From positions 224,001 through 288,000 of the forward strand of contig CAWCUS010000001.1 in NCBI GenBank assembly GCA_963798845.1: DNA of 64,000 nucleotides, in the 5' to 3' direction. A model generated the notes under the pieces. The model did not search any database and had not been told where the DNA came from. It worked only from the letters and a program-made list of their open reading frames with translations. The stretch is from an uncultured Gemmatimonadales bacterium (GTDB taxonomy: Bacteria > Gemmatimonadota > Gemmatimonadetes > Longimicrobiales > RSA9). The number at the start of each line of letters is the position of its first letter. Positions within the stretch are counted from its first letter, which is position 1. A program made the position numbers and the translations under genes. Below, piece after piece: positions 3,346 through 52,634 of this stretch.

Positions 3346-3358
3346 GCAGCCTCCGGGT

Positions 3359-3760: not shown

Positions 3761-3884
3761 TCGAATCACAGTATAACAAGACGACGCGAGGGATGGCACG
3801 TCCGCCTCCCTCGCGCGCTGGTGCGCCCGCAACGCCGCCGCCAGGGGGCGCGCTACGCGGCGGGCCGGGTCGGCAACGCCGTCC

Positions 3885-4346: not shown

Positions 4347-4357
4347 CTTCGGCTCCT

Positions 4358-5275
4358 TCAGCCTTCGTCGTTCAGCGCCCGCCGACCGGACCGGAGGTCC
4401 AGCCACGTGTCCGTCACCCCCAGGAGCAGCGTGCCGGCCACCACGATCGGGTAGAGAAGCACGCCCACCACCCCGAGCACCACGAGGACCGGCACCTGCG
4501 GGCCCACCAGCGCCAGGATCACCGCCACCAGCACGGCCAGTCCACGGAGCGCGTACAGCGCCCCCATGAAGAACACCAGGTTCGACCCGACACGGGTGGC
4601 CCATCCGGCCGCACCCGCCATGGGCAGAACCAGGAGCGCCAGCCCCACGATAAGGACCCACACGAGCCCATCCGGGAACCGGAACTCCGAGAGCCGACCG
4701 AGCGGCTCGCCTCTCCGTGCCATGGCCCGGTACAGCAGCCACGCCACCCCGAGCGACGCTACGGAGGCCACCCCGAGCAGCGCCGGGAACAGCCGCGCGG
4801 GCAGGTCAGCCGCCTGCTGCACGACCGCGTTGGACTCGGCCAGGGCCGGCCATGCCTGGCGCATCGCCTCGGCAACCTGGCGGTAGTGCGACGCGATGGT
4901 CCAGTCCAGCTCCGACCAGCCGCCCAGCACGGCCACGATCACCGCGGCCGTCGCCGCCGTCGCCGCCGTGGCCATCAGGGCGCGCGGCGTGAAGCCGCGG
5001 GCCGGCAGCAGCAGCGCGGCCAGGATGAACCACCCTCCCAGGAGCAGCGACCACCCACGCCCCACGTACCACAGCGGGTCCTGCCCCGCTCCCAGGAAGG
5101 CCAGCGCGGCCAGGATCGCGGCCGCCGCGAGGAGGACCGGCTTCCGCGGCGGAAGGCCCACCAGCAGGAGCGCAGTCGGGACCATGATCAGCTGGATAGG
5201 GTGCACCACGGAGAACGTGAGCACCACGAGCACCAGCAGGAGGACCGTCGGCCAGCGCGGTCCCCGTCCCGCCAC
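4358..5275 (-). CDS. DUF2232/YybS-family membrane protein
   Basis: Multiple TM segments, C-terminal LGVTDTWLDLR, conserved position between rpsR and rplI; GTG start inferred. Confidence 0.8.
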   Translation of the reverse strand: MAGRGPRWPTVLLLVLVVLTFSVVHPIQLIMVPTALLLVGLPPRKPVLLAAAAILAALAFLGAGQDPLWYVGRGWSLLLGGWFILAALLLPARGFTPRALMATAATAATAAVIVAVLGGWSELDWTIASHYRQVAEAMRQAWPALAESNAVVQQAADLPARLFPALLGVASVASLGVAWLLYRAMARRGEPLGRLSEFRFPDGLVWVLIVGLALLVLPMAGAAGWATRVGSNLVFFMGALYALRGLAVLVAVILALVGPQVPVLVVLGVVGVLLYPIVVAGTLLLGVTDTWLDLRSGRRALNDEG

Positions 5276-35913: not shown

Positions 35914-36966
35914 TCAGCTCTCCTCCGAGCTCTCGCTCTCCTCCGAGGCCGCCTGCCCCCGGGACATCCCGAGCTCCGAACGCACCTTCGCCTCGATCTC
36001 ATCCCGGATCTCGGGGCTCTCCATCAGGAAGGCTTTCGCGTTCTCCCGCCCCTGGCCCAGGCGAGTCTCACCATACGAGTACCAGGCCCCGGCCTTGTCC
36101 ACGATCCCCAGCTCCGACCCCAGGTCGATGAGCAGGCCGGTGTGGCTGATCCCCTCGTTGTACATGATGTCGAACTCGGCCTGCCGGAACGGCGGCGCCA
36201 TCTTGTTCTTCACCACCTTCACCCGCGTCCGGTTCCCCACCAGCTCCTGTCCGTCCTTGATCGCGCCGATCCGCCGGATGTCCATGCGCAGGCTCGCGTA
36301 GAACTTCAAAGCGCGGCCCCCGCTCGTGGTCTCTGGGTTCCCGAACATCACCCCGATCTTCTCGCGGATCTGGTTCGTGAACACCACCGACGTCCGCGAC
36401 CGGTTCACCGCGCCCGTCAGCTTCCGCAGCGCCTGGCTCATGAGCCGGGCCTGCAGCCCCACGTGCGAGTCCCCCATCTCCCCTTCGATCTCCGCCCGCG
36501 GCACCAACGCCGCAACGGAGTCGATGACCACTACGTCGACCGCGCCCGAGCGGATGAGCATCTCGGCGATCTCCAGCGCCTGCTCCCCCGTGTCCGGCTG
36601 GCTAACGAGCAGCGCGTCCACGTCCACGCCCAGCTTGCGCGAATACTCCACGTCCAGCGCGTGCTCGGCGTCGATGAACGCCGCCACGCCCCCGTTCTTC
36701 TGCGCGTTCGCGATCACGTGCAGGCAGAGCGTCGTCTTCCCGCTCGACTCCGGGCCGTAGACCTCCGTCATCCGGCCACGCGGAATCCCGCCGATCCCGA
36801 TCGCCGCGTCCAGGTTGATCGCCCCCGTCGAGATCGCCGCGACCTCCATCCTCGCCCCGTCCGCGCCCATCCGCATGATCGCGCCCTTGCCGTACGCCCG
36901 CTCGATCTGCGAGATCGCCACGTTCAGAGCCTTCTCCTTCTCCTTCGTCAGCTCGGCCGCTGCCAT
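35914..36966 (-). CDS. recA: Recombinase RecA
   Basis: [45 protein letters not shown]. Confidence 0.99.
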
Positions 36967-37083: not shown

Positions 37084-37099
37084 CCGAACAAATGCCGAA
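37084..37099. promoter_or_regulatory. Candidate SOS/LexA operator upstream of recA
   Basis: CCGAACAAATGCCGAA, identical to 51470-51485. Confidence 0.7.
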
Positions 37100-37193
37100 G
37101 TACGTTACCCTCACCGCCCCCGCCGCGCAAGAGCCCGCTCCACCGACGGAGCACGCGCTGCGACGGCCGGCGCAGAGAGCCGCGGCGGTCGAC

Positions 37194-38240
37194 TCAGGCA
37201 GCGTCGATGACGGCTCGGAGCGCCCGGGCGGCGGTGTGGATGCCGTCGTCGTCGACGTCCATGTGGGTGACGGCACGGAGCCGTCGCGGTGAGAACATGC
37301 TCATGAGCACGCCGTGGCTGGCGAGCGCAGCGAGGACGTCGGCGGCGAAGAGGCCGTCGCGGACGAGATCGATCATGAGGATGTTGGAATCGGGCGGTGT
37401 GGTCCGGACGCCGTCGAGGCCGCCCGCCAGGCTGGCCAGCTCGCGGGCTCGCCTGTGATCCTCCGCGAGCCTGTCGATGTTGTGGTCGAGCGCGTACAGT
37501 CCGGCGGCGGCGAGGATACCCGATTGGCGCATTGAGCCGCCCATGCGGCGGCGAACGCGCCACGCCTCGCTGATGAACGCCTCGCCGCCCGCGAGCATCG
37601 AGCCGACGGGGCAGCCGAGCCCCTTGGAGAGCGCCACCATGACGCTGTCGGCCGTGGCGGCGTACTCCGCCAGAGGCACACCCGACGCCACGCTGGCGTG
37701 CCACAATCGGGCGCCATCCATGTGGACCGGGAGGCCGTGCTCGCCGGCCACGGTCCGGACCCCCTGGAGAGCGGAGAGCGGGACGACGCGCCCGCCGCGC
37801 GCGTTGTGTGTGTTCTCGACGCAGATCAGCGCCGTGCGGGGCTGGTACCGGTTTCCGGCGGGGCGGATGGCGGCGCGCACGAGGTCGGCGGTGAGGATGC
37901 CGTCCTCGGTGGCTACCGGGCGCAGCTGCATCCCGGCCCACGCCGCGGCGGCGGCCTCCTCCCAGTCGACGAGGTGGCACGAGCCTTCGACCACCGCCTC
38001 GGCGCCGGGGCGGCCGTGGACGACAATGGCCGTCTCGTTCGCCATGATGCCGGTGGGGAAGAAGAGCGCGCTCTCCTTCCCCAGCAGCGCAGCAACGCGC
38101 TCTTCCAGCTTCCTGACCGTCGGATCGTCGCCCAGCTGGTCGTCTCCGACCTCCGCTTCGGCGATGGCAGCCCGCATTGCCGGGCTGGGCCGAGTGACCG
38201 TGTCGCTGCGAAGATCGATCACCCGGCCTTCCGTCGGCAT
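37194..38240 (-). CDS. ltaE: Low-specificity L-threonine aldolase
   Basis: IDLRSDTVT, VENTHN, HMDGARL, LSKGLG, GGSMRQSG. Confidence 0.92.
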   Translation of the reverse strand: MPTEGRVIDLRSDTVTRPSPAMRAAIAEAEVGDDQLGDDPTVRKLEERVAALLGKESALFFPTGIMANETAIVVHGRPGAEAVVEGSCHLVDWEEAAAAAWAGMQLRPVATEDGILTADLVRAAIRPAGNRYQPRTALICVENTHNARGGRVVPLSALQGVRTVAGEHGLPVHMDGARLWHASVASGVPLAEYAATADSVMVALSKGLGCPVGSMLAGGEAFISEAWRVRRRMGGSMRQSGILAAAGLYALDHNIDRLAEDHRRARELASLAGGLDGVRTTPPDSNILMIDLVRDGLFAADVLAALASHGVLMSMFSPRRLRAVTHMDVDDDGIHTAARALRAVIDAA

Positions 38241-38242
38241 GG

Positions 38243-38857
38243 CTATCCCGCGCTCGAGTACCGTTTCGCGACTTCGTCCCAGTCCACCACGTTCCACCAC
38301 GCGGACAGGTAGTCGCCCCGCTTGTTCTGGTACTTGAGGTAGTACGCGTGCTCCCACACGTCCACCCCCAGGAGCGGGACATCCCCCTTCATGTACGGGC
38401 TGTCCTGGTTGGGCGTGGCGTAAACCTTCAGTTGGCCGCCGCTCACCACCAGCCAACCCCAGCCGCTCCCGAACTGGCCCGACGCGGTGCTCGTGAGCTT
38501 CTCCTTGAAGTCGCTGAACGAGCCGAACTCGTTGTCGATCGCACCCGCCAGATCGCCCCCGGGCTCGCCGCCGCCGTTCGGCGACATGATCTTCCAGAAC
38601 ATGTCGTGGTTCGCGTACCCGCCGCCGTTGTTCCGCACGGCGGTCCGGATGTCCTCGGGCACGCTGTCGATGCTCCGCAGGATCTCCGAGATGGATCTGT
38701 CCTGCCAGTCCCGGTGCTTCTCGATCGCCGCGTTCAGCTTGTCCGTGTATCCCTTGTGGTGCCGGTCGTGGTGGATCTCCATGGTCCGCGCATCGATGTG
38801 CGGCTCGAGCGCATCGAACGAATACGGCAGGTCAGGCAGCTGGAACGGGTACGCCAT
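38243..38857 (-). CDS. sodA: Superoxide dismutase (Mn-type signature)
   Basis: [26 protein letters not shown]. Confidence 0.95.
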
Positions 38858-38925
38858 GGCTCCTCCTCGAGGGTGTCACGAGAATCGTGTCTCTGCAGCA
38901 TGCACTGGAGAACGAGGCAGGGGCC

Positions 38926-38940
38926 GCAATACGGGTGCCA
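38926..38940 (-). promoter_or_regulatory. Sigma54 -24/-12 promoter of sodA
   Basis: TGGCAC-CCGTA-TTGC, a perfect consensus match in the intergenic gap. Confidence 0.75.
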
Positions 38941-38965
38941 TTACCGGGAACGTCCGGGGGGTGGG

Positions 38966-39196
38966 CTAGGCTTCCTCCAGCTCGCGTCCGCACTCGGCGC
39001 AGAAGCGGCTCGAGGGGGGATTGGCGGCCCGGCAACGGGGGCAGACGGTGCCCGCGGCCACGGCCGCGCGGTAGCGAGCCAGGTCCTGGTCGAGTGTGGG
39101 TGCGTCCGGATAGCGGCCTCGGCCGGCCAGGACCGGGAAAGCCACGGCGGCCAGGGCAATGAGGGCGAGCGCGCCGATGATCACGTACTGGAACAT
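38966..39196 (-). CDS. Small membrane-anchored zinc-ribbon protein
   Basis: N-terminal TM; CPRC..N...SRFCAECG. Confidence 0.8.
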   Translation of the reverse strand: MFQYVIIGALALIALAAVAFPVLAGRGRYPDAPTLDQDLARYRAAVAAGTVCPRCRAANPPSSRFCAECGRELEEA

Positions 39197-39198
39197 GG

Positions 39199-39606
39199 TC
39201 AGTTCAGCTGGTGGGAAAGCGTGAGGCCCAGGGCGACGCCTGCGGCGTCCCAGGTGAGATCCTTCAGGCTGAAGCGGCGGCCGGCGCGGCGGTCGTGGAC
39301 CTCCTTGCCGATCCCTGCCACGAAGGCAGCGGCCCCGGCAGCTGTGAACGCGGCCTGGCGCCGGAAGACGGTACGGCCGAACCCGTTTCCCAGGGCGGTG
39401 AGGGCGAACGACATGGTGAGGTGCCGGAGCTTGTCTTCCGCGATCCAGCGGTCCGGGCCTTCGGGCTGCGGCGCGGCGGCGGGGTGTGGCGGCCCGGCCA
39501 GGACGAGGCCGGGGTGCGCGATCTCCCCGTATGGCGCCGCGACCGGTCGCCCCGCGCCGTGCGCGGCCAGGAGCGCGACGGCCATGGCGAGGCCAGCCGG
39601 GATCAT
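39199..39606 (-). CDS. YfiM/DUF2279-like membrane protein
   Basis: DRW.AEDKLRH, GIGKEVHD, FSLKDLTWDAAG. Confidence 0.75.
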   Translation of the reverse strand: MIPAGLAMAVALLAAHGAGRPVAAPYGEIAHPGLVLAGPPHPAAAPQPEGPDRWIAEDKLRHLTMSFALTALGNGFGRTVFRRQAAFTAAGAAAFVAGIGKEVHDRRAGRRFSLKDLTWDAAGVALGLTLSHQLN

Positions 39607-40076
39607 CGGGCGACCGCCTGGAACGCCAGCTCCACCGCTTCCTCCCCGGTCTCGGCGAGCAGCAGCTCGAGCCCGGCCGTGAGCCCGGGCCGGAGCAGGA
39701 CGACGGGGACGCTGACCTTGGTCGCCAGCGCCACTTCGGAGAGCGTTCCCCACTCGCCGCCGATGGCGATCAGGGCATCGGCCGTACGGGCCACGAGCAG
39801 GTTCCTGCCTTCGCCGAGCCCGGTGGGCAGCGGAATCAGGATATGGCGGTTCGCGTTGCGGGCGTCACCCCCCGGCAGGAACCCGATGGTGATCCCATCC
39901 TCGGTCCGGGCACCGCGGGCGGCGGCTTCCATGACACCGCCCAGGCCGCCGCACAGGAGGACGCCGCCCCGCCTGGCGACGTGCCGCCCCACGTCCTCGG
40001 CCAGGCGGGCGAGCTCGGCGTCGCAGATCCCGGCACCGGCCACCGCGATCCGGATGGGCGGACGCGCGTCACTCAT
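39603..40076 (-). CDS. TIGR00725-family (SLOG/LOG-like) protein
   Basis: [29 protein letters not shown]. Confidence 0.88.
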
Positions 40077-41589
40077 GGGTCGCCCAGTGCAGCGCGGTTT
40101 CCACGGCCCGCTCCCACCCGCGGACCTGGCGTCCACGCTCCGCCGCGTCCATGCGCGGCTCGAAGTGGTCCGGCTCGGGGCGAGCGCCGAGAAACGCCCC
40201 GGCATCGGGCCAGACGCCCGTGGCGAGGCCGGCGAGCCCGGCGGCGCCGAGGGCCGTGGTCTCCAGGTTCTGCGGGCGCCGGACCGGGAGCCCGAGGAGG
40301 TCTGCCTGGAACTGCATCATCCAGTCGTTGGCGGCGGCGCCACCGTCCACGGCCAGCTCGCGGGCGCGCACGCCGGAATCGGCTTCCATGGCGAGGAGCA
40401 CCTCGCGCGTGGAGTGGGCCATGGCTTCGAGTGACGCCCTGGCCAGGTGCCGAGCGCCGCTGCCTCGGGTCAGCCCTACCAGCGTGCCGCGCGCCTCGGG
40501 GTTCCAGCGCGGCGCGCCCAGCCCGACGAAGGCGGGGACGAAATAGACGCCGTCGTTCGAGTCGAGGGAGGCGGCCATGTCGGAAGTTTCGTCGGCGGTG
40601 TCGATGAGGCCCAGGCCGTCCCGCAGCCATTGCACCGCTGCGCCCGCGACGAAGATGGCCCCCTCCAGCGCGTACGCGGGCTGTCCGGCGGCGTCGCAGG
40701 CGATGGTGGTGAGGAGCCCGCGCTCCGACTCGATCCGCTCGTCGCCGGTGTGCAGGAGGAGGAAGGCCCCGGTGCCGTACGTGTTCTTGGCGAGACCGGG
40801 ACGCCAGCACCCCTGGCCGAACAGCGCCGCCTGCTGGTCCCCGGCCACGCCGGCCACCGGCACCGGTGCGCCGAAGAGCGCCGGGTCCGTCTCGCCGAAG
40901 ACGCCGCTGGAGGGTCGGACGTCGGGGAGCAGCGCGCGCGGGATGCCGAACAGCCCGAGCAGATCGTCGTCCCATTCCCGGGCGTCAATGTTGTAGAGGA
41001 GGGTGCGGGAAGCGTTGGTCGGGTCCGTGGCGTGGACACGGCCGCCGGTCAGCTTCCAGATCAGCCAGCTGTCCACGGTTCCCGCCGCCAGCTCGCCCGC
41101 CTCCGCCCGCTCCCCCGCCCCGTCCACGTGCTCCAGCAGCCACTCCAGCTTGGTGCCCGAGAAGTAGGGGTCCACCACCAGCCCCGTGCGCGCCCGGATC
41201 CCCGGCTCCTCGCCTGCTTCCTTCAGCGCCCGGCAGCGGCCGGCCGTGCGGCGGTCCTGCCACACGATCGCCCGGTGGACCGGCTCGCCCGTGGCGCGGT
41301 CCCACAGCACCACCGTCTCGCGCTGGTTGGTGATCCCGATCCCGGCGACGACGGGGCCTCCGCCGGCCGCGCCGTCCCCGGCGACCCGGGCGTCCGCGGC
41401 GGCCAGCGCCTCCCTCGCCACCCGCAGCGTCACTGCCCAGATTTCCGCCGCGTCGTGCTCCACCAGTCCGGGCTCGGGGAAGTGCTGCGTGAACTCGGAG
41501 TACGCACGGCCGAGGACGCGCCCGTTGGCGCCGACCACCATGCACGTGCTGCCGGTCGTTCCCTGGTCGATGGCGAGAATCGCCTTCAC
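40069..41589 (-). CDS. glpK: Glycerol kinase
   Basis: [37 protein letters not shown]. Confidence 0.96.
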
Positions 41590-42194
41590 GCCCCACCTCC
41601 TCTTTGGAGTCGGCCGAACCGGTACTGCCACCCGAGGCGCTCGAGCAGGCGGACCAGCGTGAGCAGCGGGAGCCCCATGACCGCGAAATAATCTCCCGCA
41701 ACACGCTCCACCAGCACGGCCCCGAAACCCTGGATGCCGTACGCCCCGGCCTTGTCCAGCGGCTCGCCCGTCGCGGCATACCCTTCCGCGGTGGCGCGGT
41801 CGAACGCGCGGAAGCGGACGTCCACTCCCACGGCCGCGGACACCGCCCGGCCGCCGGGAGCCACCACCGCCACACCGGTCTCCACCCGATGCTCGCGGCC
41901 CTGCAGCCGGAGCAGCATCTCGATCGCTTCGGCTTCGTCTTCCGGCTTCGTCAGGATCTCTCCGTCCAGCACCACCACCGTGTCTCCGCCCACGACGAGC
42001 GCGTCCGGGTGCCTGGCGGCGGTCACTCTCGCCTTTTCCAGAGCGAGCCGCTCAACATGTGGCGCCGGCGCTTCCTCCGCGAGCGGCATCTCGTCGACGT
42101 GCGCGGGATCCACGGTGAACTCCAGGCCGAGCTGTTCCAGCAGCGTGCGGCGGCGAGGGGAGGCGGAGGCCAGGACCAGGCGGGGCGGCGTCAT
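41586..42194 (-). CDS. maf: Maf-family nucleoside triphosphate pyrophosphatase
   Basis: [29 protein letters not shown]. Confidence 0.94.
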
Positions 42195-42631
42195 CGCTCC
42201 AGGACGAGGGTGACCGGGCCGTCGTTCGTCAGCTCCACGTTCATCATCGCGCCGAACTCACCGCTCTCCACGCGTCCAGGGGCCCGCTCCCGCAGGAGCT
42301 CGAGGAAACGCTCGTAGAGCGGCTCCGCCGCTTCGGGCGGGGCGGCGCCGATGAAGCTGGGCCGGCGCCCCTTCCGCACATCGCCGTAGAGGGTGAACTG
42401 GCTCACGACCAGGAGCGCGCCTCCCACGTCGTCCAGCGCGAGGTTCATCTTCCCCTCGTGGTCGGCGAACAGGCGGAGCCCGATGATCTTGTCCGCCATC
42501 CAGGTCAACGCGCCATCGTCGTCGTCCGGGGCGAAGCCGGCCAGGACCACGAAGCCGCGGCCGATCCGCCCCACGATCCGGCCGTCGATCCGGACTTCGG
42601 CCCGGCTCACGCGCTGCAGGACGATCCGCAC
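42191..42631 (-). CDS. dtd: D-aminoacyl-tRNA deacylase
   Basis: LQRV, SQFTL, GRRPSF, FGAMM, NDGPVT. Confidence 0.96.
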   Translation of the reverse strand: MRIVLQRVSRAEVRIDGRIVGRIGRGFVVLAGFAPDDDDGALTWMADKIIGLRLFADHEGKMNLALDDVGGALLVVSQFTLYGDVRKGRRPSFIGAAPPEAAEPLYERFLELLRERAPGRVESGEFGAMMNVELTNDGPVTLVLER

Positions 42632-42635
42632 GCCG

Positions 42636-44468
42636 TCATTCGACGGTGACCGACTTCGCCAGGTTTCGCGGCTGGTCCACGTGGCAGCCTCGCATGACGG
42701 CCACGTGGTACGCCAGGAGCTGGAGCGGGACCGTGGCGAGCACCGGCGTCAGCATGTCAATGGTGCCCGGAATCGTGATCAGGTGGTCGACCTTGTCTCG
42801 CAGCTCGGTGTCCCCGTCGCTGACCACGGCGATGACGCGCCCGCCCCGGGTCTTCACCTCTTCGATGTTCGACACCACCTTGCCGTAAACCGCGTCGTGG
42901 GGCGCCACCACCACGACCGGCATCTCGTCGGTGATGAGGGCGATGGGCCCGTGCTTCATCTCCGCGGCGGGCAGCCCCTCCGCGTGGATATAGCTGATCT
43001 CCTTCAGCTTCAGCGCCCCCTCCAGCGCCGTCGGGAAGTTGTAGCCGCGCCCCAGGTACAGGAAATTGCCCGCGTCCTTGTACGTGCGCGCCAGCGCCCG
43101 GATGCTGTCGTTGAGCTCCAGCACCTGGCGCACCTGGCCGGGGAGCGCCTTCATCGCGTTCACGATGTCCCGGCCCTGGACCACCGACATGCCCCGTCGG
43201 CGCGCCATGAGCAGCGTGAACAGCGCCAGCACCGCCACCTGGCTCGTGAACGCCTTCGTGGACGCCACGCCGATCTCCGGGCCCGCGTGGATGTAGACGC
43301 CGCCATCGGTCTCGCGCGCGATGGTGGAGCCCACCACGTTGACGATCCCCATGGCCAGCGCACCCTGCCGCTTCGCTTCCCGGACCGCGGCGAGCGTGTC
43401 CGCCGTCTCCCCGGACTGGCTGATGGTGATGACGGTCGTATTCGGCCGGATCACAGGGTTCCGGTAGCGGAACTCCGAGGCGTACTCCACCTCCACCGGG
43501 ATGCGGGCGAACTCCTCGATCATGTACTCGCCGATCAGCCCGGCGTGCCAGGAGGTGCCCGAGGCGATGATGACGATCTGCTCGGTCCCCGAGAGCCGCT
43601 CGAGCATGTGCTCCAGGCCACCCAGCTTTGCCGTCCCCTCCTCTTCCAGCAGCCGGCCGCGCATGGCGTTCTCGAGCGTTTCCGGCTGCTCGAAGATCTC
43701 CTTCATCATGAAGTGGTCGAACCCGCTCTTCTCGATGGCGTCCAGGTCCCAGTCGACCCGCGTCACCTCCTTCGCGAGCTCGCGCCCCTTCAGCGTCGAG
43801 ATCTGGTAGCCGTCGCGCGTGAGGACGGCCATTTCGCCGTCCTCCAGATAGACGAAGTTGCGGGTGTGCGCGAGCACGGCCGCCACATCGCTGGCCAGGA
43901 AGTATTCGTGGTTCTCACCCACGCCCACCAGCAGCGGGCTCCCCTTCCTCGCCCCGACGATCTTGTCCGGCTCCCGCGCACTTATGATGGCCAGGCCGTA
44001 TGTCCCCTCGACCTGGGCCAGCGCGGCCCGGACCGCCTGTTCGAGCGAGCCGTCGTACGCTTCCTCGATCAGGTGCGCCACGACCTCCGTGTCCGTCTCG
44101 GTCTGGAACGTGTGGCCGAGGCTGATCAGCTTCTTCTTCAGGGTGCCGGCGTTCTCGATGATCCCGTTGTGGACCAGCGCGATCTCGCCTTTGCAGTCCA
44201 CGTGGGGATGGGCGTTCGGCTCCGTCGGCGCGCCGTGCGTCGCCCACCGCGTGTGCGCGATCCCGCACGACGAATCCGGCAGCCCGTCGCCGTTCAGCCG
44301 GTTCTCCAGCTCCGTTATCCTTCCCACGGCCTTGCGCGTGTCCAGCCCTGCCCCGTTCGTCACCGTGATGCCGGCCGAGTCGTACCCCCTGTATTCCAGA
44401 CGACGCAGCCCCTCGATCAGGAGTGGCGTGGCCGTCCGTCCACCGATATAGCCTACAATGCCGCACAT
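42636..44468 (-). CDS. glmS: Glutamine--fructose-6-phosphate aminotransferase
   Basis: MCGIVG, LEYRGYDSAG, HTRWATHG, PRNLAKSVTVE. Confidence 0.98.
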   Translation of the reverse strand: MCGIVGYIGGRTATPLLIEGLRRLEYRGYDSAGITVTNGAGLDTRKAVGRITELENRLNGDGLPDSSCGIAHTRWATHGAPTEPNAHPHVDCKGEIALVHNGIIENAGTLKKKLISLGHTFQTETDTEVVAHLIEEAYDGSLEQAVRAALAQVEGTYGLAIISAREPDKIVGARKGSPLLVGVGENHEYFLASDVAAVLAHTRNFVYLEDGEMAVLTRDGYQISTLKGRELAKEVTRVDWDLDAIEKSGFDHFMMKEIFEQPETLENAMRGRLLEEEGTAKLGGLEHMLERLSGTEQIVIIASGTSWHAGLIGEYMIEEFARIPVEVEYASEFRYRNPVIRPNTTVITISQSGETADTLAAVREAKRQGALAMGIVNVVGSTIARETDGGVYIHAGPEIGVASTKAFTSQVAVLALFTLLMARRRGMSVVQGRDIVNAMKALPGQVRQVLELNDSIRALARTYKDAGNFLYLGRGYNFPTALEGALKLKEISYIHAEGLPAAEMKHGPIALITDEMPVVVVAPHDAVYGKVVSNIEEVKTRGGRVIAVVSDGDTELRDKVDHLITIPGTIDMLTPVLATVPLQLLAYHVAVMRGCHVDQPRNLAKSVTVE

Positions 44469-44472
44469 TCGC

Positions 44473-45870
44473 TCAGCCGTTCGTTGAGATTCCCTGGAGT
44501 GCGGCCCTCGCGGCTCGCACCAGCCCCTTCGCCTCTTCCCTGTTCGGCGCCTCGGCGATCATGCGCACGATCGGCTCCGTCCCGCTCGGCCGGAAGTGGA
44601 GCCAGCGCCGAAGCTCCGGCCAGCCGAGCCACAGCCCGTCCTGACGGTCCGCCACGGGCGCATGGAGCTCGGCCGCCAGGCGGTCGTACGCTGGCTCCAG
44701 CGCTCCCTCCGGACGGCGCACGCTGTCCTTCACGATGCTGTACGCCGGCCACGCGGCCACGATCTCGCTGACCGGCCGCCCCTCCTCGAGCAGGAGCTGG
44801 AGGACCAGCGCAGCCGCTACCTGGGCGTCCCGGGTCAGGTGAACCGCCGGGAAGATGACCCCTCCGTTCCCTTCGCCCCCGATCGTCGCGCCTTCCCTCT
44901 GCATCCGCCGGGCCACGTTGATCTCGCCCACCGGGGCGCGGTGGAACGGAACACCGGCGTCCGCGGCCGCGTCCTCTACCACACGACTGGTCGAGAGGTT
45001 CGTCACCACGGGGCCCGGGCGGTGGCGCAGCGCCAGCCGCGTCGCCAGCGCGAGCGTGTAGTCCTCCCCGATGGCCGCACCCGTCTCGTCCACCAGCGAC
45101 AGCCGGTCCGCGTCGGGATCCGTGGCGAGCCCTATGTCCGCCCCGGTCTCCCGCACCAGCGCCTCCAGCTCGCCCAGGTGCTCTGCCGTGGGCTCTGGCT
45201 TCCGCTCGAACCGGCCGTCCGGCTCCAGGTTGATCCCGTGGACCTCGCAGCCGAGCGATTCGAGAAGGCGAGGCAGCGTGATGGAGCCCGCGCCGCGGAT
45301 GCAGTCCAGCGCGACCCGGAACCGCCGCCGGCGGAGCGCTTTCAGGTCCAGGAACGGCAGGTCGAGGATCGCCGACACGTGCCGCTCCGCCGCCCCTTCG
45401 TCCTCCGTGACGAAGCCGATCCCGTCCCATGCCTTCCACGGCGGCTCGCGCTCCAGCTGCGACCGCATCGCCGCGGACTCTTCCGTGTCCAGGAACATGC
45501 CCGCCGACAATGCCAGCTTGAGCGCGTTCCACTCCACGGGGTTGTGGCTCGCCGTCACGATGATGCCGCCGTCCGCACCGTGGTGCCGGACGGCCATCAG
45601 CGCCGTCGGGGTCGGCACGAGCCCGACGTGGACCACCTCGCAGCCGATCCCCTCCAGCGCCGCGCTCACCGCCCGCACCAGCAGCGGTCCGGATGTCCGC
45701 GAGTCGCGGGCGACGACCACCCGTGGCCGCCCCTCCGCCCGCTCCTCCAGGTACGCGCCGAACGCCGCCGCGAACGCCGCCGCCACCCGCGGCGTGAGCC
45801 CCTCCCCCACGCGCCCGCGAACCCCGGAGACGCTCACCATGAGGGTGTTCGGGATCTGGAAAGCGTGCAT
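44473..45870 (-). CDS. glmM: Phosphoglucosamine mutase
   Basis: SGVRG, TASHNP, DPDADR, GGEGNGG, RPSGTEP; directly upstream of glmS. Confidence 0.88.
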   Translation of the reverse strand: MHAFQIPNTLMVSVSGVRGRVGEGLTPRVAAAFAAAFGAYLEERAEGRPRVVVARDSRTSGPLLVRAVSAALEGIGCEVVHVGLVPTPTALMAVRHHGADGGIIVTASHNPVEWNALKLALSAGMFLDTEESAAMRSQLEREPPWKAWDGIGFVTEDEGAAERHVSAILDLPFLDLKALRRRRFRVALDCIRGAGSITLPRLLESLGCEVHGINLEPDGRFERKPEPTAEHLGELEALVRETGADIGLATDPDADRLSLVDETGAAIGEDYTLALATRLALRHRPGPVVTNLSTSRVVEDAAADAGVPFHRAPVGEINVARRMQREGATIGGEGNGGVIFPAVHLTRDAQVAAALVLQLLLEEGRPVSEIVAAWPAYSIVKDSVRRPEGALEPAYDRLAAELHAPVADRQDGLWLGWPELRRWLHFRPSGTEPIVRMIAEAPNREEAKGLVRAARAALQGISTNG

Positions 45871-45986
45871 CGTCTCCCTTGTGCGAAAAGAGCCGCCGCC
45901 CGGAAGGCGCCGGCCCGCGAAGATAGGCAAAGCTAGGCGCAAGCGCGCACGTGAGTCAATTCGGTACCGGCGCGGGCCGCAACGCG

Positions 45987-46790
45987 TCAGCCGGGGAGGA
46001 ACCGGGCGAGGAGTTTCACGACGGCATCCGGGTTGTCCGCGTTCAGCCAGTGCCCACCCTGCACCGCGTGGAGAAAGACCCGTCCGGTGGCCTGGCCGGC
46101 CGACCCGATGCGCGCCACGGCCTCCGCGCCGAGTACTGGCGAGCCAGTGGCACGGACGAAGTGGAGGGTCAGTCCGTCGCGCGGTGACTCGACCACCTCC
46201 CAGAGGTCCTGGCGGAAGAAGTCGCGCAGCAGCGCCTCCATCCGGTCGAAGTCGAGCCGCCACCGGTACTCGCCGCCGCGCCACTCCAGGTTCGTGCTCA
46301 TCCACAGCGCCACGGGCTCGGCCACGCCCTGCGCGGTGAGCGCCGCCACGGCCGCATCGCGGTCGTCGAAGCTCGCCGGCAGGCGACGCAGCCGATCCAG
46401 CATCTCCCACGCCGCCCCTTCCGGAACCCTCGCCTCGGGCGTCGAGTCGATCACCCACACCTGCTCGATCGCGCGGTCATCGCGACCGCGAACCAGTGCG
46501 ACCTTGCCGCCGAAAGAGTGGCCCAGGATCGCGGCTGCCCGTCCCGCCGGCTCCAGCGCATCCAGGTCCGACGCCGCGGCCTCCAGCGTGTCCGGCGGCG
46601 GGAATCCGGTCGACTCCCCGTGCTCCCGCAGATCCACCAGCAACGCCCCCCACTCCGGCCGGCGTTCCACCACCGCGCGCGCCACCGACGCCCAGTTCCG
46701 CCCCGCGCCGTAGATGCCATGGAGCATCAGCAGCCAGCGGTCTGGCGCCGCCCCCGTCGCCTTCACCGCCCTCGTATTCAGATCCGGCAT
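45987..46790 (-). CDS. Alpha/beta hydrolase (YbfF-like esterase)
   Basis: HGIYG, DLREHG, GHSFGG, GHWLNADNP. Confidence 0.9.
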   Translation of the reverse strand: MPDLNTRAVKATGAAPDRWLLMLHGIYGAGRNWASVARAVVERRPEWGALLVDLREHGESTGFPPPDTLEAAASDLDALEPAGRAAAILGHSFGGKVALVRGRDDRAIEQVWVIDSTPEARVPEGAAWEMLDRLRRLPASFDDRDAAVAALTAQGVAEPVALWMSTNLEWRGGEYRWRLDFDRMEALLRDFFRQDLWEVVESPRDGLTLHFVRATGSPVLGAEAVARIGSAGQATGRVFLHAVQGGHWLNADNPDAVVKLLARFLPG

Positions 46791-46883
46791 TCCCGTGCCT
46801 CACCCTTTCGCGCGCTGGCCCGCCCGGGAGCACGGGCGTATCTTCCCGTGCCTCGCATCCACCCTGTTCCGACGCGGAATTCC

Positions 46884-48044
46884 ATGACAGGTAAGCAGCC
46901 TGGCTTCGCCACGCGCGCCATCCATGCCGGCCAGTCGCCGGACCCCACCACCGGCGCCATCATGCCGCCGATTTACCAGACGTCCACGTACGTGCAGCCG
47001 GCACTCGGCCAGCCCAGGGACGGATACGAGTACGCCCGCGTCAGCAACCCCACACGCGACGCGCTCCAGGCCAATGTGGCGGCGCTCGAAGGGGCACGCC
47101 ACGGCGCCTCGTTCGCCAGCGGCCTGGCGGCCATCGAGGCGGTGGTCAAGAAGCTCTCCGCGGGCGACCACGTGGTCAGCGAAGAGAACACGTACGGCGG
47201 CACCACGCGCATGTTCGACACGGTGCTCGCACGGCTGGGCATCGAGTTCACCTACGTCGACTCGCGCGACCCCGACGCCATCCGCTCGGCGATCCGCCCG
47301 AATACGAAGCTGATCCACCTGGAGACGCCGACGAACCCCATGATGCGCCTCACCGACCTGGAGGCGGCGGCAGTGATCGGGCGCGACGCGGGTGTGACGA
47401 CGTGCGTGGACAACACCTTCGCCACCCCCTACAACCAGCGGCCCCTGGAGCTCGGGATCGATCTCGTGGTGCACTCCACCACCAAGTACCTGAACGGGCA
47501 CAGCGACGTCATTGGCGGTATCGTCCTCACCAGCGATGAGGAGTGGGCGGAGCATCTCTATTACCTCCAGAAGGCCGCGGGCGCCGTGCCTGGCCCCATG
47601 GATGCGTGGCTTACGCTCCGCGGCACGAAGACGCTCGCCGTGCGAATGGAAGCCCACAACCGCAACGGCATGGCCATGGCCGAGTTCCTGGCCGGGCACC
47701 CGAAGGTGGAGCGGGTCAACTATCCCGGACTCCCGTCGCACCCGCAGCACGGGCTGGCGAAGCGGCAGATGACGGGTTTCACCGGCATGCTCAGCGTGGA
47801 GCTCGGCTCCATGGAGCGGGCCCGGTCCGTGGTCCAGGCCACGAAGATCTTCGCCCTGGCCGAGAGCCTCGGCGGCGTCGAGAGCCTGATCGGGCACCCG
47901 GCCATGCAGACCCACGCCGCGGTCGATCCCGAGCGGCGACGCGCCATCGGAATCAGCGATGGTCTCGTCCGCCTGTCCGTCGGCATCGAGGATATCGACG
48001 ACCTGAGGGACGACATCGCCCAGGCTCTCGACGCCGCGGCCTGA
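46884..48044 (+). CDS. Cystathionine gamma-lyase/synthase (Cys/Met PLP enzyme)
   Basis: ATRAIHAG, YARVSNPT, ETPTNP, HSTTKYLNGHSD, AESLGGVES. Confidence 0.93.
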   Translation: MTGKQPGFATRAIHAGQSPDPTTGAIMPPIYQTSTYVQPALGQPRDGYEYARVSNPTRDALQANVAALEGARHGASFASGLAAIEAVVKKLSAGDHVVSEENTYGGTTRMFDTVLARLGIEFTYVDSRDPDAIRSAIRPNTKLIHLETPTNPMMRLTDLEAAAVIGRDAGVTTCVDNTFATPYNQRPLELGIDLVVHSTTKYLNGHSDVIGGIVLTSDEEWAEHLYYLQKAAGAVPGPMDAWLTLRGTKTLAVRMEAHNRNGMAMAEFLAGHPKVERVNYPGLPSHPQHGLAKRQMTGFTGMLSVELGSMERARSVVQATKIFALAESLGGVESLIGHPAMQTHAAVDPERRRAIGISDGLVRLSVGIEDIDDLRDDIAQALDAAA

Positions 48045-48065
48045 CCGCGAGCGCGGCCCGCCGCG

Positions 48066-48092
48066 GGAAACCTCCGGGTCCGCGAGCGCGTA
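48066..48092 (+). promoter_or_regulatory. Putative ECF sigma promoter of the M48 peptidase
   Basis: GGAAAC-N17-CGTA, same architecture as the sites at 55927 and 56581. Confidence 0.65.
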
Positions 48093-48158
48093 AGGAATAC
48101 TGTCCGGCCGGGGGCCTGCCCCGCCGTGCACGCCATCATAGTGGAGGGAGCCACACCG

Positions 48159-49154
48159 GTGACAGACCACGACATCGTCCCCCAGCCGCGCGTCATCCTG
48201 ACCGAGATCGGGGCAGAAAGCTGGGAGCACCCGGCCGATCGCGCGGCGCTCGCCGCGCTCCGGCGCATTCCCGCCTTCGACGAGGTGCTGCGCAAGCTGT
48301 TCGGCTTCTTCGGCGAGAAGCCCGTGCGCCTCGCTTTCCAGGCCAACGCGGTCAGAGTCGGGCCCAGACAGTTCCCGGAAGTGCATGCCAAGTACCTGCG
48401 CGTGCTCGAGACCATGGACGCGCCGGAGGAATACCCGCTCTTCATCTCCCAGACGCCGGTCGTGAACGCCGGCGCGTACGGGATGAACAAGCCGTTCATC
48501 GTCCTGAACAGCGGCAGCATCCGCCTGCTCGAGGGCGACGAGCAGGTGTTTCTCCTCGGCCACGAGCTCGGCCACATCCTCAGCGGCCACGTGCTCTACC
48601 GGACGATGATGGTGATCCTCCTCCAACTCGCGAACCTCGGCTTCCCCATCGTGGGAATCGCCGCCCGTGCCGTGCTCCTGGGGCTGCTCGAATGGAGCCG
48701 CAAGAGCGAGCTCAGCTCCGACCGCGCCGGCCTCCTCACCGTCCAGGACCCCACCGCCGCCCTTCAGACCTCCCTCAAGCTGGCCGGCGGCGGCTCCCGC
48801 GAGGAGACCGACCTGAACGAGTTCCTCAAGCAGGCCGACGAGTACCGCGAGTCCGGCGACGTGGGCGATTCCGTGTTCAAGGTCCTCAACCTCCTCGGCA
48901 CCACCCACCCGTTCCACACCCTCCGCGCCGCGGAGCTTCGCGACTGGATCGAGGCCGGCGAGTACGAGCGGATCCTGCGCGGCGAGTACCGCAGGCGCGG
49001 TGAGCCCCGCGCGTCCTACATGGACGACCTCCGGGCCGCCTCGAAGTCCTACCAGGAGGAGGCGCGCGCCATCTTCGACGACGTCGCCACAGGCGCCCGC
49101 GACGCCGCCGAGAAGGTGCGCCAGGCCGTGAGCGAAGCCTTCCGCAAGCGCTGA
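48159..49154 (+). CDS. M48-family (HtpX-like) zinc metallopeptidase
   Basis: NAGAYG, HELGH, ELSSDRAG, THP; SD GGAGGGAG before GTG. Confidence 0.9.
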   Translation: MTDHDIVPQPRVILTEIGAESWEHPADRAALAALRRIPAFDEVLRKLFGFFGEKPVRLAFQANAVRVGPRQFPEVHAKYLRVLETMDAPEEYPLFISQTPVVNAGAYGMNKPFIVLNSGSIRLLEGDEQVFLLGHELGHILSGHVLYRTMMVILLQLANLGFPIVGIAARAVLLGLLEWSRKSELSSDRAGLLTVQDPTAALQTSLKLAGGGSREETDLNEFLKQADEYRESGDVGDSVFKVLNLLGTTHPFHTLRAAELRDWIEAGEYERILRGEYRRRGEPRASYMDDLRAASKSYQEEARAIFDDVATGARDAAEKVRQAVSEAFRKR

Positions 49155-49260
49155 TCTCGCAGGTTGCAGGCGAGCGCCGCGCCCGGTACCCTACCGTCGA
49201 ATCCCCGCGCAGCGGGGGCCGGTCGCGCGCAGCGGCGTCGAACCTCCAAACCGGACGCTC

Positions 49261-50550
49261 ATGAAGATCCTCGTCGTCGGCAGCGGCGGCCGCGAGCACG
49301 CGCTGCTCTGGAAGCTGCATCGCGACGCCCCATCCGCGGACTTCTTCATCACGCGCGGCAACGGGGGCACGCACGCGCTCGCCAAGCACGTCTCCCTGGA
49401 CGCCTCCGATGTCGCCGGCATCGCCGCATGGGCCGATACCGAGGACATGGACCTCGTCGTCATCGGCCCTGAAGCGCCGCTCGCCGCGGGCCTCGCCGAC
49501 GCCCTCCACCAGCGAGGCGTCCCGGTCTTCGGACCGGGCCGGGAGGCGGCGGCGATCGAGGCTTCCAAGGCTTTCGCAAAGGACGTCATGCGCGCCGCAC
49601 GCGTCCCCACCGCGGACTACGGCGTGTTCTCCGACCCCGCCGCCGCCGCCGCCTTCATCCGCACTCGTGGCGCGCCCATCGTCGTGAAGGCGTCCGGCCT
49701 CGCCGCCGGCAAGGGCGCCATCGTCTGCGACAGCACGGACGCCGCCCTCGCCGCCATGACCGGGATGCTGGAACGCGACGAATTCGGTGACGCCGGCCGG
49801 GAAGTGGTGGTGGAAGAGTGCATGACGGGCGAGGAGCTCAGCGTCTTCGCCCTGACTGATGGCCGCGACGTGCTCGTCATGACGCCATCGCAGGACCACA
49901 AGCGGGTGGCCGAAGGAGACGTGGGGCCCAACACCGGCGGGATGGGCGCCTACGCGCCCGTGTCGATCGCCAGCCACGAACTCGTGGACCGCCTGATCGA
50001 CGAGATCCTGCACCCGACGCTGCACGAGCTGCGGCGCAGGGGCCGCTCGTTCCGGGGCCTCCTCTACGCCGGGCTCATGCTCACCGGCGACGGGCCGAAG
50101 GTGGTGGAGTTCAACGCGCGCTTCGGCGACCCCGAGACCCAGGCCGTGCTCCCGCTCATGGACTCCCCTCTCCTCGAGATCCTCGAAGCGATCGCGCGTG
50201 GCAGCGGCGTGCGAGACCTCGCCATCCGCTGGAAGCCGGGGGCCGCCGTCACTACCGTCGTGGCCGCGGGCGGCTACCCGGGCGCCTACGAAAAGGGACT
50301 CGAGATCCGCATCCCGTCCAGCGTCGAGAGCGACGGCAGCGTCATGCTCTTCCACGCCGGGACGGCCCGCAAGGACGGGCGGCTCGTCACGGACGGCGGG
50401 CGTGTCCTGGCCGCCACCGCACTCGGCGACGACCTCAGGGACGCCGCCGAGCGCAGCCGCGCCGCTGCGTCGGAAATCGCGTTCGACGGCGCCCACTTCC
50501 GCCGCGACATCGGCTGGCGGGAGCTCGAGCGCGTGGCCGGGACCCCCTGA
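49261..50550 (+). CDS. purD: Phosphoribosylamine--glycine ligase
   Basis: GSGGREHAL, GPEAPL, GLAAGKG, NTGGMGAY, EFNARFGDPETQ. Confidence 0.97.
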   Translation: MKILVVGSGGREHALLWKLHRDAPSADFFITRGNGGTHALAKHVSLDASDVAGIAAWADTEDMDLVVIGPEAPLAAGLADALHQRGVPVFGPGREAAAIEASKAFAKDVMRAARVPTADYGVFSDPAAAAAFIRTRGAPIVVKASGLAAGKGAIVCDSTDAALAAMTGMLERDEFGDAGREVVVEECMTGEELSVFALTDGRDVLVMTPSQDHKRVAEGDVGPNTGGMGAYAPVSIASHELVDRLIDEILHPTLHELRRRGRSFRGLLYAGLMLTGDGPKVVEFNARFGDPETQAVLPLMDSPLLEILEAIARGSGVRDLAIRWKPGAAVTTVVAAGGYPGAYEKGLEIRIPSSVESDGSVMLFHAGTARKDGRLVTDGGRVLAATALGDDLRDAAERSRAAASEIAFDGAHFRRDIGWRELERVAGTP

Positions 50551-50569
50551 GCCGTCCCCGGACCCGCGC

Positions 50570-51388
50570 GTGCCGGAGCTCCCCGAAGCCGAGACCATCG
50601 CTCGCGATCTGGCTCCCCGCCTGGCGGGGGCGAGCATCCAGGACGTGTCCATCACGCACGCCGACGTCCTCGCCGGCGGCGCCGACACCTTCGGCCGGCG
50701 CGTGGCCGGCCGGACCGTCGCCGCCGTGGGCCGCCGCGGCAAGAACGTGGTGGTCGCCTTCGAGGACGGGGCGCGGCTCGTCGTCAACCTCGGGATGACG
50801 GGCCGTCTCGTTCTCAGCGATTCCCCCCGCGCGTCCGAGCTCCGTCACGTCGCCGTTCGCTTCCGCCTCGATGACGGACGCGATCTCCTCTTCGACGACA
50901 CCCGCCGCTTCGGTCTCCTCGAGCTCTTCGAAGCCGACGCCTGGGACCGGAGGAGCACCGAGCTCGGCCTCGAGCCACTCTCCCCCGACTTCACCGGCGA
51001 CGCCCTCTGGAGCATGACCCGCCGGTCCCGCACCCCCGTCCGCAATCTGCTCCTCGACCAGTATCGCGTGGCCGGGATCGGGAACATCTACGCCCTCGAA
51101 GCCCTCTTCCGCGCCGGCATCCGCCCAACCCGCCGCTCACACCGGATCACCCGCATTCAGGCCCATCGCCTCCGCGACGCGCTCGTCGACGTCCTCAGGA
51201 TGGCGATCCACCACCGCGGCACCACATTCTCCGACTACCGCGACGCCTCCGGGCAGGAGGGCGCCTTCGAACCCCTCCTCCAGGTCTACGGCCGCGAGGG
51301 CCATCCCTGCCCTCGCTGCGGAACCCCCATCAGGCGACGGATCCTCACCAACCGCAGCGCGTTCTACTGCCCCACCTGCCAGACCTGA
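50570..51388 (+). CDS. mutM: Formamidopyrimidine-DNA glycosylase
   Basis: PELPE, RRGK, LGMTG, RRFG, GIGNIY, CPRC..CPTCQ zinc finger. Confidence 0.96.
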   Translation: MPELPEAETIARDLAPRLAGASIQDVSITHADVLAGGADTFGRRVAGRTVAAVGRRGKNVVVAFEDGARLVVNLGMTGRLVLSDSPRASELRHVAVRFRLDDGRDLLFDDTRRFGLLELFEADAWDRRSTELGLEPLSPDFTGDALWSMTRRSRTPVRNLLLDQYRVAGIGNIYALEALFRAGIRPTRRSHRITRIQAHRLRDALVDVLRMAIHHRGTTFSDYRDASGQEGAFEPLLQVYGREGHPCPRCGTPIRRRILTNRSAFYCPTCQT

Positions 51389-51469
51389 CCCCCTCCTTTC
51401 CGGTCGCGCGGGTCGCGCACGGTCAACCGCCGCCGCGCTCCCGCGGCGGTTCTCCCGCTGCGGCCCTTG

Positions 51470-51486
51470 CCGAACAAATGCCGAAC
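51470..51486 (+). promoter_or_regulatory. Candidate SOS/LexA operator overlapping the promoter of the Cho-like nuclease
   Basis: CCGAACAAATGCCGAAC = GAAC-N7-GAAC, overlapping TTGCCG-N18-CAGATT. Confidence 0.7.
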
Positions 51487-51503
51487 CTGACAGATTCCAT
51501 TCC

Positions 51504-52634
51504 ATGCACGCGTTCCTCGACCCGCGCCCCACCGATCCGCCGATCTTCCAGCACCGATCCTCACCTGCGTCGATCGATGGGGACGCACATGCCCGCCGGC
51601 AGCGATTGAGGGAACAGGTCCGGGCGGGCGCCGAGAACCGGCCTGGCGTGTACCGGATGCTCGGCCCGGGAGAGCGGGTGCTGTACGTGGGCAAGTCGAT
51701 CCGCGTGCGCGGCCGCCTGCTCTCCTACTTCCGGGCCGAGCCGGGGGAGAAGGCGTCGGAGATTCTCGGGCTCACCGAGCGCATCGAGTGGGACGACCAT
51801 CCGAGCGAGTTCGCCGCGCTGCTCCGCGAGTTCCGCCAGATCCGGCGCCTGCGGCCTCCTTTCAACGTGCAGCACAAGAAGGAGCGCGCGGTTTGCTTCA
51901 TCCGCATCCCGCGCGAGCCGGTTCCCCGCATCGTGGTGACCACGCGCCCGATGCCGGACGGATCGGAGTACCACGGCCCGCTTCTCGGCTCGGCGAGGGT
52001 GCGGGCCGCGATGCGCGTGCTGGTGGATACGCTCCAGCTCCGTGACTGTCCGGCCACCACGCCGCTCCGTCTGGCCGACCAGGCGGACCTGTTCGGCGCG
52101 GCCTACACCCCGCTCTGCGCCCGGGCCGAGTTCGGCCGGTGCCTGGCCCCGTGCGCCGCGGGCTGCACCGAGCGCGGATACGCGGGCCGGCTGGCCGTGG
52201 CGCGTCGCTTCCTCCGGGGGGAGACGGACGAACCCCTGGATCGGCTGCGCGCCATGCTCCGGCTCGCCGTCGAGCGGTGGCTGTTCGAGTACGCGGCCGT
52301 GGTGGCCGAGCGGCTCGAGCTGCTCCAGGCGGTCCGCGCATCGCTGCTCCGGACCGAGCGGGCGCTGGCCGCGCTCACGGCGCTGTATCTGGTGGCCGGA
52401 CACGCCGGCGACGACCGCGTGTACGTGCTTCAGCGCGGCCTCGTGCGCGCCGAGCTGGCCGTGCCCCCCGACGAGCGCGGCCGGACGGCCATGCGCCGCC
52501 GCGCCGACCGCCTGTTGTCGGCACCCGCGCAGTCCCCGGCGAAGCTGGCCCCGGACGGCGTGGCCGAGTCGCTCCTGGTGGAGCGGTGGTTCCGCCGCAA
52601 CCCTGCGGAGCGGGAGCGCCTGAGGGCGGGCTGA
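51504..52634 (+). CDS. UvrC N-terminal-like GIY-YIG endonuclease (Cho-like)
   Basis: PGVYRM..LYVGKS..R.RL.SYF, EFAALLRE..P.FN, Cys cluster (LRDC..C..RCLAPC), UVR-like FEYAA; no RNase H or HhH C-terminal half. Confidence 0.88.
   Translation: MHAFLDPRPTDPPIFQHRSSPASIDGDAHARRQRLREQVRAGAENRPGVYRMLGPGERVLYVGKSIRVRGRLLSYFRAEPGEKASEILGLTERIEWDDHPSEFAALLREFRQIRRLRPPFNVQHKKERAVCFIRIPREPVPRIVVTTRPMPDGSEYHGPLLGSARVRAAMRVLVDTLQLRDCPATTPLRLADQADLFGAAYTPLCARAEFGRCLAPCAAGCTERGYAGRLAVARRFLRGETDEPLDRLRAMLRLAVERWLFEYAAVVAERLELLQAVRASLLRTERALAALTALYLVAGHAGDDRVYVLQRGLVRAELAVPPDERGRTAMRRRADRLLSAPAQSPAKLAPDGVAESLLVERWFRRNPAERERLRAG

Follow-up and report, generated by a model that had tools for sequence, protein, structure and literature searches.

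Within the 64,000-nt window analysed here (G000:C1:224001-288000 of the 4,262,375-base assembly of an uncultured Gemmatimonadota bacterium), recA and a gene for a GIY-YIG nuclease resembling the N-terminal part of UvrC (hereafter the Cho-like gene) are each preceded by the same 16-mer, CCGAACAAATGCCGAA, exact copies of which were found by a motif search on the plus strand at 37084-37099 and 51470-51485. Both copies are intergenic. The sequence-only reading that first drew attention to the motif had placed it at these two sites and about 120 bp from recA, which agrees with the 118 nt measured to the recA ATG, and it rightly described a direct repeat of CCGAA with a period of 11 bp. Read on the recA strand, the 16-mer is TTCGGCATTTGTTCGG; its two TTCGG half-sites are separated by 6 nt (TTCGG-N6-TTCGG), again with a period of 11 bp. 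A third site in the window, at 8588, differs at three positions; the chance expectation is 0.24 matches, and three matches were reached in 0 of 100 shuffles. In the whole genome, just the two copies are found when up to two mismatches are allowed, and a control pattern read backwards gives none. We consider it very probable, from comparison of sequences, that the 16-mer is the operator of this organism's SOS repressor, most likely bound by LexA1, one of the LexA-type proteins encoded in the genome.

The proposal that the 16-mer is a LexA operator is supported by its occurrence in relatives, where the motif precedes lexA, recA and other SOS-type genes. From the genome collection, the 80 best-matching relatives of the lexA1 locus were sorted by record titles (Gemmatimonadota, Longimicrobiales or Palauibacter), two loci from unpublished genomes (L252 of G057 and L436 of G086) being left out before counting; at lexA and recA, boxes were accepted up to 200 nt upstream, with at most one mismatch for lexA. 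All 49 Gemmatimonadota-titled lexA loci carry at least one box and 48 of them carry two or more. These boxes are in gene orientation without exception (99/99), with starts mostly 24-27 nt apart, and their density upstream of lexA is 137 times that in the remaining parts of the same loci. Among loci with other titles, 26 of 29 are without a box; two boxed loci titled Holophagales and Nitrosopumilaceae carry a Gemmatimonadota-like LexA and are probably misbinned.

Conservation upstream of recA, which the sequence-only reading had called for, is also found. Every one of the ten Gemmatimonadota-titled recA loci has a box, seven in gene orientation and three inverted, as do eight of ten genomes of the same order, all in gene orientation; the same-order genomes G027 and G090 have none within 230 nt of recA. 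As a control, recA loci of other phyla (a set that excludes L033, L038 and L077, which have no 1,200-nt upstream flank) yielded a box in 3 of 67 cases, each with a mismatch in the core. At the other genes, a box precedes 10 of the 12 imuA-like orthologues read (weaker matches, most of them frames of about 360-390 amino acids taken as RecA itself, were omitted), always in the layout cTTGn-box-TAnnnT, and further boxes occur at 8 of 29 dnaE2 orthologues and at 8 of 28 uvrB orthologues, in the latter always inverted and at -42 to -50.

A search for double boxes across the genomes of 185,579 species returned at least 120 stretches. Among the 80 matches listed, 68 are Gemmatimonadota-titled, and in 34 of these a LexA N-terminus lies no more than 250 nt away; 11 bear the titles of other taxa and are all simple tandem repeats, and one, an 'uncultured bacterium' record without a taxon title, is a Gemmatimonadota-like lexA locus with the LexA N-terminus present. 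The unit conserved in relatives is TTCGG-N6-TTCGG, and not GAAC-N7-GAAC as had been suggested from the window alone; among 105 sites, the G before TTC is present at 15 in the first half-site and at 56 in the second.

A position weight matrix (PWM) was built from the sites of relatives and scanned over the genome, with the reversed genome as control. At 19 bits or more there are 12 matches in the genome and 3 in the control, and at 12 bits or more there are 54 and 34, respectively. Eight of the 12 high-scoring matches are intergenic, and all eight precede SOS-type genes (Table 1). The promoters of repair genes, proposed earlier as a check, divide accordingly into those with boxes (two at lexA1, one at the imuA/imuB-like genes, two at dnaE2 and one at uvrB) and those with none within 400 nt upstream, where the best score is 2.2 bits: a dinB-like gene, two uvrA, recN and two ssb genes, together with lexA2 and a pair of WYL-domain genes.

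Table 1. Features of the two window sites, and box scores at SOS-type genes elsewhere in the genome. Positions are those of the window.
Feature	Position	Strand	Evidence and remarks
recA	35914-36966	-	Pfam RecA 461.6 bits, RecA_C 88.7 bits
LexA-type operator candidate, TTCGGCATTTGTTCGG	37084..37099	-	Same orientation as recA; exact match; PWM 25.6 bits (second best in the genome)
Beta-eliminating lyase family gene (upstream neighbour of recA)	37194..38456	-	Pfam Beta_elim_lyase 324 bits; its stop codon, at 37194, marks the edge of the intergenic stretch at recA
fpg (mutM), upstream of the Cho-like gene	50198..51388	+	Pfam Fapy_DNA_glyco, H2TH, zf-FPG_IleRS
G+C-rich hairpin, 9-bp stem, between fpg and operator	51429..51450	+	Fold prediction
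Second operator candidate copy	51470..51485	-	Opposite in orientation to the Cho-like gene, whose first in-frame ATG lies 18 nt downstream; exact match; PWM 21.3 bits
Cho-like/UvrC-N-terminal-like GIY-YIG nuclease gene	51504-52634	+	376 aa as listed; NCBIfam matches below cut-off, structure alignment
imuA-like box, imuB-like gene next			28.3 bits; weak NCBIfam ImuA/RecA and Pol IV matches
dnaE2 boxes (two)			24.1 and 22.4 bits; dnaE2 by NF004225, 955.3 bits
lexA1 boxes (two)			22.8 and 21.5 bits
uvrB box			19.9 bits; 3 nt before the ATG

Other matches of the matrix were judged to be chance or unrelated occurrences. One lies in coding sequence that resembles a glyoxalase (C5:227123), another at the 3' end of a ruvA-like stretch ahead of a signal-peptidase gene (C1:461217), two in genes paralogous to each other (C6:166291 and C5:318799) and others before two PAS-domain genes; a box-like site of 17.2 bits over the TATACT -10 of the transfer-messenger RNA (ssrA) promoter (G000:C4:284519-284537) was judged a chance match.

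The dnaE2 gene of this genome (G000:C1:475153-478760, minus strand; 1153-4760 of locus L168) reads in two frames. Its PHP part, with an ATG at L168:4760, enters a low-complexity stretch rich in Gly, Ser, Ala and Arg, and the other polymerase part (L168:1153-4095) lies in a different frame; the split, near L168 4000-4400, is due to a frameshift, to an unusual insert or to an error of assembly.

The promoter of lexA1 itself carries two boxes. TTGCTT is followed by TTCGGGTCGTGTTCGG, which fills the 17-nt spacer and shares its first T with the -35 hexamer, then by TAGACT, and finally by TTCGGACTTTCTTCGG just before the start codon; the lexA promoters of relatives repeat the layout cTTGCG-box-gTAnnnT-box. 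Because the boxes thus lie inside and just after the core promoter, they bear the signature of an autoregulated repressor. Reading of the sequences places the operator over the core promoter at lexA and at imuA, whereas neither window site received a promoter call in a sigma-70 scan.

That the motif is always found near promoters, and that GAAC, its reverse-strand reading, resembles the -35 elements of extracytoplasmic function (ECF) sigma factors, might be taken to mean that the repeat is itself a promoter element, for instance one used by an alternative sigma factor of ECF type, rather than the binding site of a repressor. We consider this extremely improbable: half-sites 11 bp apart are too close together for a -35/-10 pair, both orientations relative to the gene occur, and at lexA the boxes lie between and after ordinary TTGCGN and TAnnnT hexamers.

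The probable ligand of the operator is LexA1 (G000:C4:126104-126727, 207 amino acids), which passes the TIGR00498 LexA equivalog (207.8 bits against a cut-off of 110.95) and contains the PF01726 winged-helix DNA-binding domain (73.3 bits, at C4:126524-126712) and the PF00717 S24 peptidase domain (110.7 bits). It aligns end to end with the solved LexA chains 3k2z and 7ocj, with VAAG, GDSM and TVKR at the corresponding positions, which we take, following the established E. coli LexA, to be the cleavage site and the Ser/Lys dyad. LexA1 is predicted on these grounds to be a canonical, self-cleaving LexA in which the cleavage site and the dyad are intact.

The genome encodes a second LexA-like protein as well. 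LexA2 (G000:C5:228897-229571, minus strand; 224 amino acids) scores 104.2 bits on TIGR00498, slightly below the cut-off; it has no Ala-Gly site, Gly replaces the catalytic Ser (GDGL) and Arg replaces the Lys, and it is predicted not to be self-cleaving. A tRNA-Gln(CTG) gene has its 3' end 1 nt before the lexA2 ATG. LexA_DNA_bind is matched a third time, weakly (25 bits), at G000:C2:876158-876322 on the plus strand, in a 410-amino-acid frame that lacks an S24 domain. WYL-domain genes are present as a neighbouring pair (69 and 71 bits; G000:C6:1350902-1352153, plus strand, with starts at C6:1350902 and 1351956) in a layout like that of actinobacterial pafB-pafC.

The type of box goes together with the recognition helix of LexA. 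All 53 LexA proteins with an ATVHEH helix (and mostly a YNE wing) have TTCGG boxes, and such boxes are found in none of the 27 with an ATVHKH helix (WNR wing; Acidobacteriota and one deltaproteobacterial record), of which 24 instead have TTCGC-N6-TT[TC]G[CT] at the same promoter position. The lexA promoters of Acidobacteriota/Vicinamibacterales (L120-L166) read TTGAC-TTTCGC-N5-CTTTGCG-TATAGT. This partition is consistent with LexA1 as the binder of the TTCGG box, though no proof of it.

It is conceivable that the motif is a genuine DNA-damage operator to which a different regulator binds, either LexA2, predicted to be non-cleavable, or, as an activator, the PafBC-like pair of tandem WYL-domain proteins, a WYL-type activator having been named as an alternative in the sequence-only reading. 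The genome does encode both candidates, a LexA2 in which Ala-Gly site, Ser and Lys are all missing, and two adjacent WYL proteins. However, the box type partitions with the recognition helix of LexA1, LexA2 is only 25% identical to LexA1 overall with a strongly divergent helix region and may recognise a different target, and neither lexA2 nor the WYL pair carries an upstream box. The promoter geometry is likewise repressor-like and unlike that of an activator that replaces the -35 element. A PafBC/WYL activator site would be a single site upstream of the -10 in place of the -35, whereas the lexA promoters keep their own TTGCGN -35, with the first box in the spacer and the second past the -10. 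In addition, the PafBC motif is not known to be an 11-bp direct repeat. Binding by one of these other regulators therefore appears distinctly improbable, and LexA1 is retained as the preferred binder.

Beyond the existence of these other candidate regulators, several observations weigh against the interpretation of the 16-mer as a LexA1 operator. The sites used for the PWM were chosen by their likeness to the motif, so that its scores are partly circular, and gene calls outside the window come from a crude caller. The remaining 4 of the 12 matches at 19 bits or more fall in coding DNA. Exact TTCGG-N6-TTCGG occurs 15 times in the genome, which is no higher than the counts for other spacings (5-38); the SOS signal emerges only when position is considered. 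The partition of helix and box essentially contrasts two clades and not many independent events. Finally, the sigma-70 scan calls no promoter at either the recA or the Cho-like site, so that a repression geometry is unsupported there: the hexamers proposed from the window, TTGCCG-N18-CAGATT at the Cho-like gene and TAACGT at recA, are present in the sequence, but those at the Cho-like gene match at 4 of 6 and 3 of 6 positions, and neither site is called as a promoter.

The most serious local doubt concerns chance at the Cho-like site. Here TTCGG-N6-TTCGG would be the operator of the phylum, and one or both of the window copies, the Cho-like one above all, would be non-functional look-alikes whose 16/16 identity arose by chance. 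The box precedes only 2 of 29 Cho-like orthologues (L176 and L183, both of the same order), and G027, which belongs to the same family and is among the closest relatives read, has no box at cho or within 230 nt of recA. About three matches of 19 bits or more are expected by chance, and the four matches in coding DNA show that such sites exist. Nevertheless, each copy lies in an intergenic region with a repair gene immediately downstream of it, all eight intergenic matches at this threshold precede SOS-type genes, and the position and orientation of the recA box are common to eight of ten same-order genomes. Moreover, the two relatives in which the upstream neighbour of the Cho-like gene is not fpg both have the box, which lies 11-12 nt ahead of the ATG and, like the window copy, is inverted. 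Taken with these points, we regard chance identity as very improbable, and the two copies as probable functional sites of the LexA-type operator. The box at the Cho-like gene is lineage-specific, being confined to this order among the genomes read.

The neighbourhood of the Cho-like gene differs between these relatives. In the window and in five of them (L175, L177, L179, L182 and L186), fpg and the Cho-like gene are adjacent and co-oriented, usually with few bases between them, and in those five, where the Cho-like gene directly follows fpg, there is no box. In the window, 82 nt separate the fpg stop (51388) from the operator. This stretch folds no better than shuffled sequences (z -1.6) and no terminator was called in it; the predicted hairpin within it is a possible, weak candidate for a transcript boundary. 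The true start of fpg probably lies further downstream than the listed start of its open reading frame (ORF), because the Fpg domain begins at residue 126.

If the TTGCCG-N18-CAGATT pair is real, the ATG at 51504 would fall 7 nt past the -10. At this site (51467-51506) and in L176 and L183, the Cho-like ATG lies 11-18 nt past the box and 7-10 nt past a weak -10-like hexamer. One may speculate that the cho mRNA is leaderless, again provided that the hexamer pair is real.

The assignment of the two flanked genes is as follows. For the recA product, the best relatives are Gemmatimonadota-titled and 70-79% identical. The Cho-like ORF has no Pfam family at E <= 0.001. It matches the uvrC model TIGR00194 with 110.3 bits, below the cut-off and over model positions 8-229 of 574 only, and it matches the GIY-YIG part of NF005906 (DEDD-exonuclease-domain protein) with 135.4 bits, also below the cut-off. 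Residues 33-128 align with the structure of the UvrC GIY-YIG domain (1yd6, E 3e-5), and alignments with orthologues begin only at about residue 28-36 of the ORF. The protein thus has a GIY-YIG domain homologous to the N-terminus of UvrC and is without the C-terminal half of UvrC. Since it scores 50.8 bits on the Cho equivalog NF007833, for which the cut-off is 367, it does not qualify as a member of that equivalog, and we call it Cho-like and not Cho.

Taken together, these features suggest how the system may work. A LexA1 dimer would place its two DNA-binding domains on successive helix turns of TTCGG-N6-TTCGG, one turn per half-site, and LexA1 so bound would occlude RNA polymerase at recA and at the Cho-like gene. 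When DNA is damaged, LexA1 would cleave itself under stimulation by RecA, freeing both genes and, with them, a small regulon comprising lexA1 itself (two boxes), the imuA/imuB-like operon, dnaE2 (two boxes) and probably uvrB. We infer from sequence both that LexA1 is the binder and that binding represses these genes until damage induces them.

The site belongs to a familiar kind. The alphaproteobacterial LexA box is GTTC-N7-GTTC or GAAC-N7-GAAC according to excerpts of PMC9578287 and PMC3323433, and in our own comparison one or the other form was present in all five alphaproteobacterial lexA upstream regions, inside the -35/-10 spacer. The box of Caulobacter, Rhodobacter and the rhizobia shares with the present one the direct repeat, the 11-bp period, the TTC core and the location in the lexA spacer. 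The likeness noted in the sequence-only reading therefore extends to architecture, but not to lineage. The unit here is TTCGG, with a near-invariant CGG (in sites selected by likeness to TTCGG-N6-TTCGG) and an optional leading G, so that GTTC is not present in both half-sites; LexA1 is not of the alphaproteobacterial lineage, being 34-37% identical to the LexA proteins of four alphaproteobacterial genomes, which at about 232-245 amino acids are longer than its 207, and its recognition helix differs from that of the LexA proteins in all five alphaproteobacterial genomes read.

The same excerpts give the Gram-positive (actinobacterial) box as CGAAC-N4-GTTCG. Its half-site is nearly identical (GTTCG versus TTCGG or GTTCGG), but there the repeat is inverted and more closely spaced, whereas here it is direct. 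Recognition of direct repeats by LexA evolved several times, as stated in an excerpt of PMC7739468 that cites papers on Verrucomicrobia and Patescibacteria and work by Mazon; the Patescibacteria case is Sanchez-Osuna, Barbe and Erill (Environ Microbiol 2017). No patescibacterial record is present among the 80 double-box matches listed. The LexA motif of Balneolaeota, TTACACATATTTTWTACATA, which was reached by a comparative route and validated by electrophoretic mobility-shift assay (excerpt of PMC7739468), is likewise a direct repeat, with a sequence unrelated to TTCGG-N6-TTCGG.

Outside the phylum, the closest LexA proteins are those of Acidobacteriota (Vicinamibacterales), at about 56-62% identity, whose lexA promoters contain, at the corresponding position, a repeat that is likewise direct and has a period of 11 bp. 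The LexA box of Acidobacterium capsulatum, from the same phylum, is the subject of Mazon et al. (2006). The difference lies in the box (TTCGC-N6-TT[TC]G[CT] versus TTCGG in Gemmatimonadota), in the helix (K versus E) and in the wing (WNR versus mostly YNE).

The genes under the box also have counterparts elsewhere. In E. coli, cho is SOS-regulated. As there, and as in split imuA-imuB/dnaE2 cassettes, a UvrC-N-terminal-like nuclease and an error-prone polymerase cassette stand here under a LexA-type box, although the nuclease scores below the cut-off of the Cho model (50.8 versus 367 bits). Cassettes with dnaE2 are described as LexA-regulated, whether contiguous or split, in an excerpt of PMC3919608.

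A literature search, with most subscription journals outside its scope, found no paper on a LexA box in Gemmatimonadota and none that connects TTCGG with an SOS operator. As far as searched, no SOS box has been published for this phylum, and the motif represents a well-known type of site in a new sequence form; it is an ordinary kind of regulatory site and involves no new mechanism.

Gemmatimonadota are a common phylum of soils and sediments. LexA operators vary between bacterial phyla, and the SOS regulon of a phylum cannot be read from genomes until its operator is known. TTCGG-N6-TTCGG makes that regulon readable, and in this organism the predicted set is small: lexA, recA, a split imuA-imuB/dnaE2 mutagenesis cassette, uvrB and the Cho-like nuclease. 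The motif also bears, as a further case, on how direct-repeat recognition arises in a dimeric LexA, and it provides, in Gemmatimonadota and Vicinamibacterales, a closely related pair of LexA proteins whose boxes differ at one half-site position. A tentative idea, which we hold to be unlikely on present evidence, is that the LexA clade common to these two groups gained direct-repeat recognition independently of Alphaproteobacteria, and that one change of the helix (Glu49 in Gemmatimonadota versus Lys in Acidobacteriota, with the wing going from YNE to WNR) retargets position 5 of the half-site from G to C. If this is true, Glu49/Lys would be a natural two-state specificity switch, illustrating how LexA can change its operator without losing its regulon.

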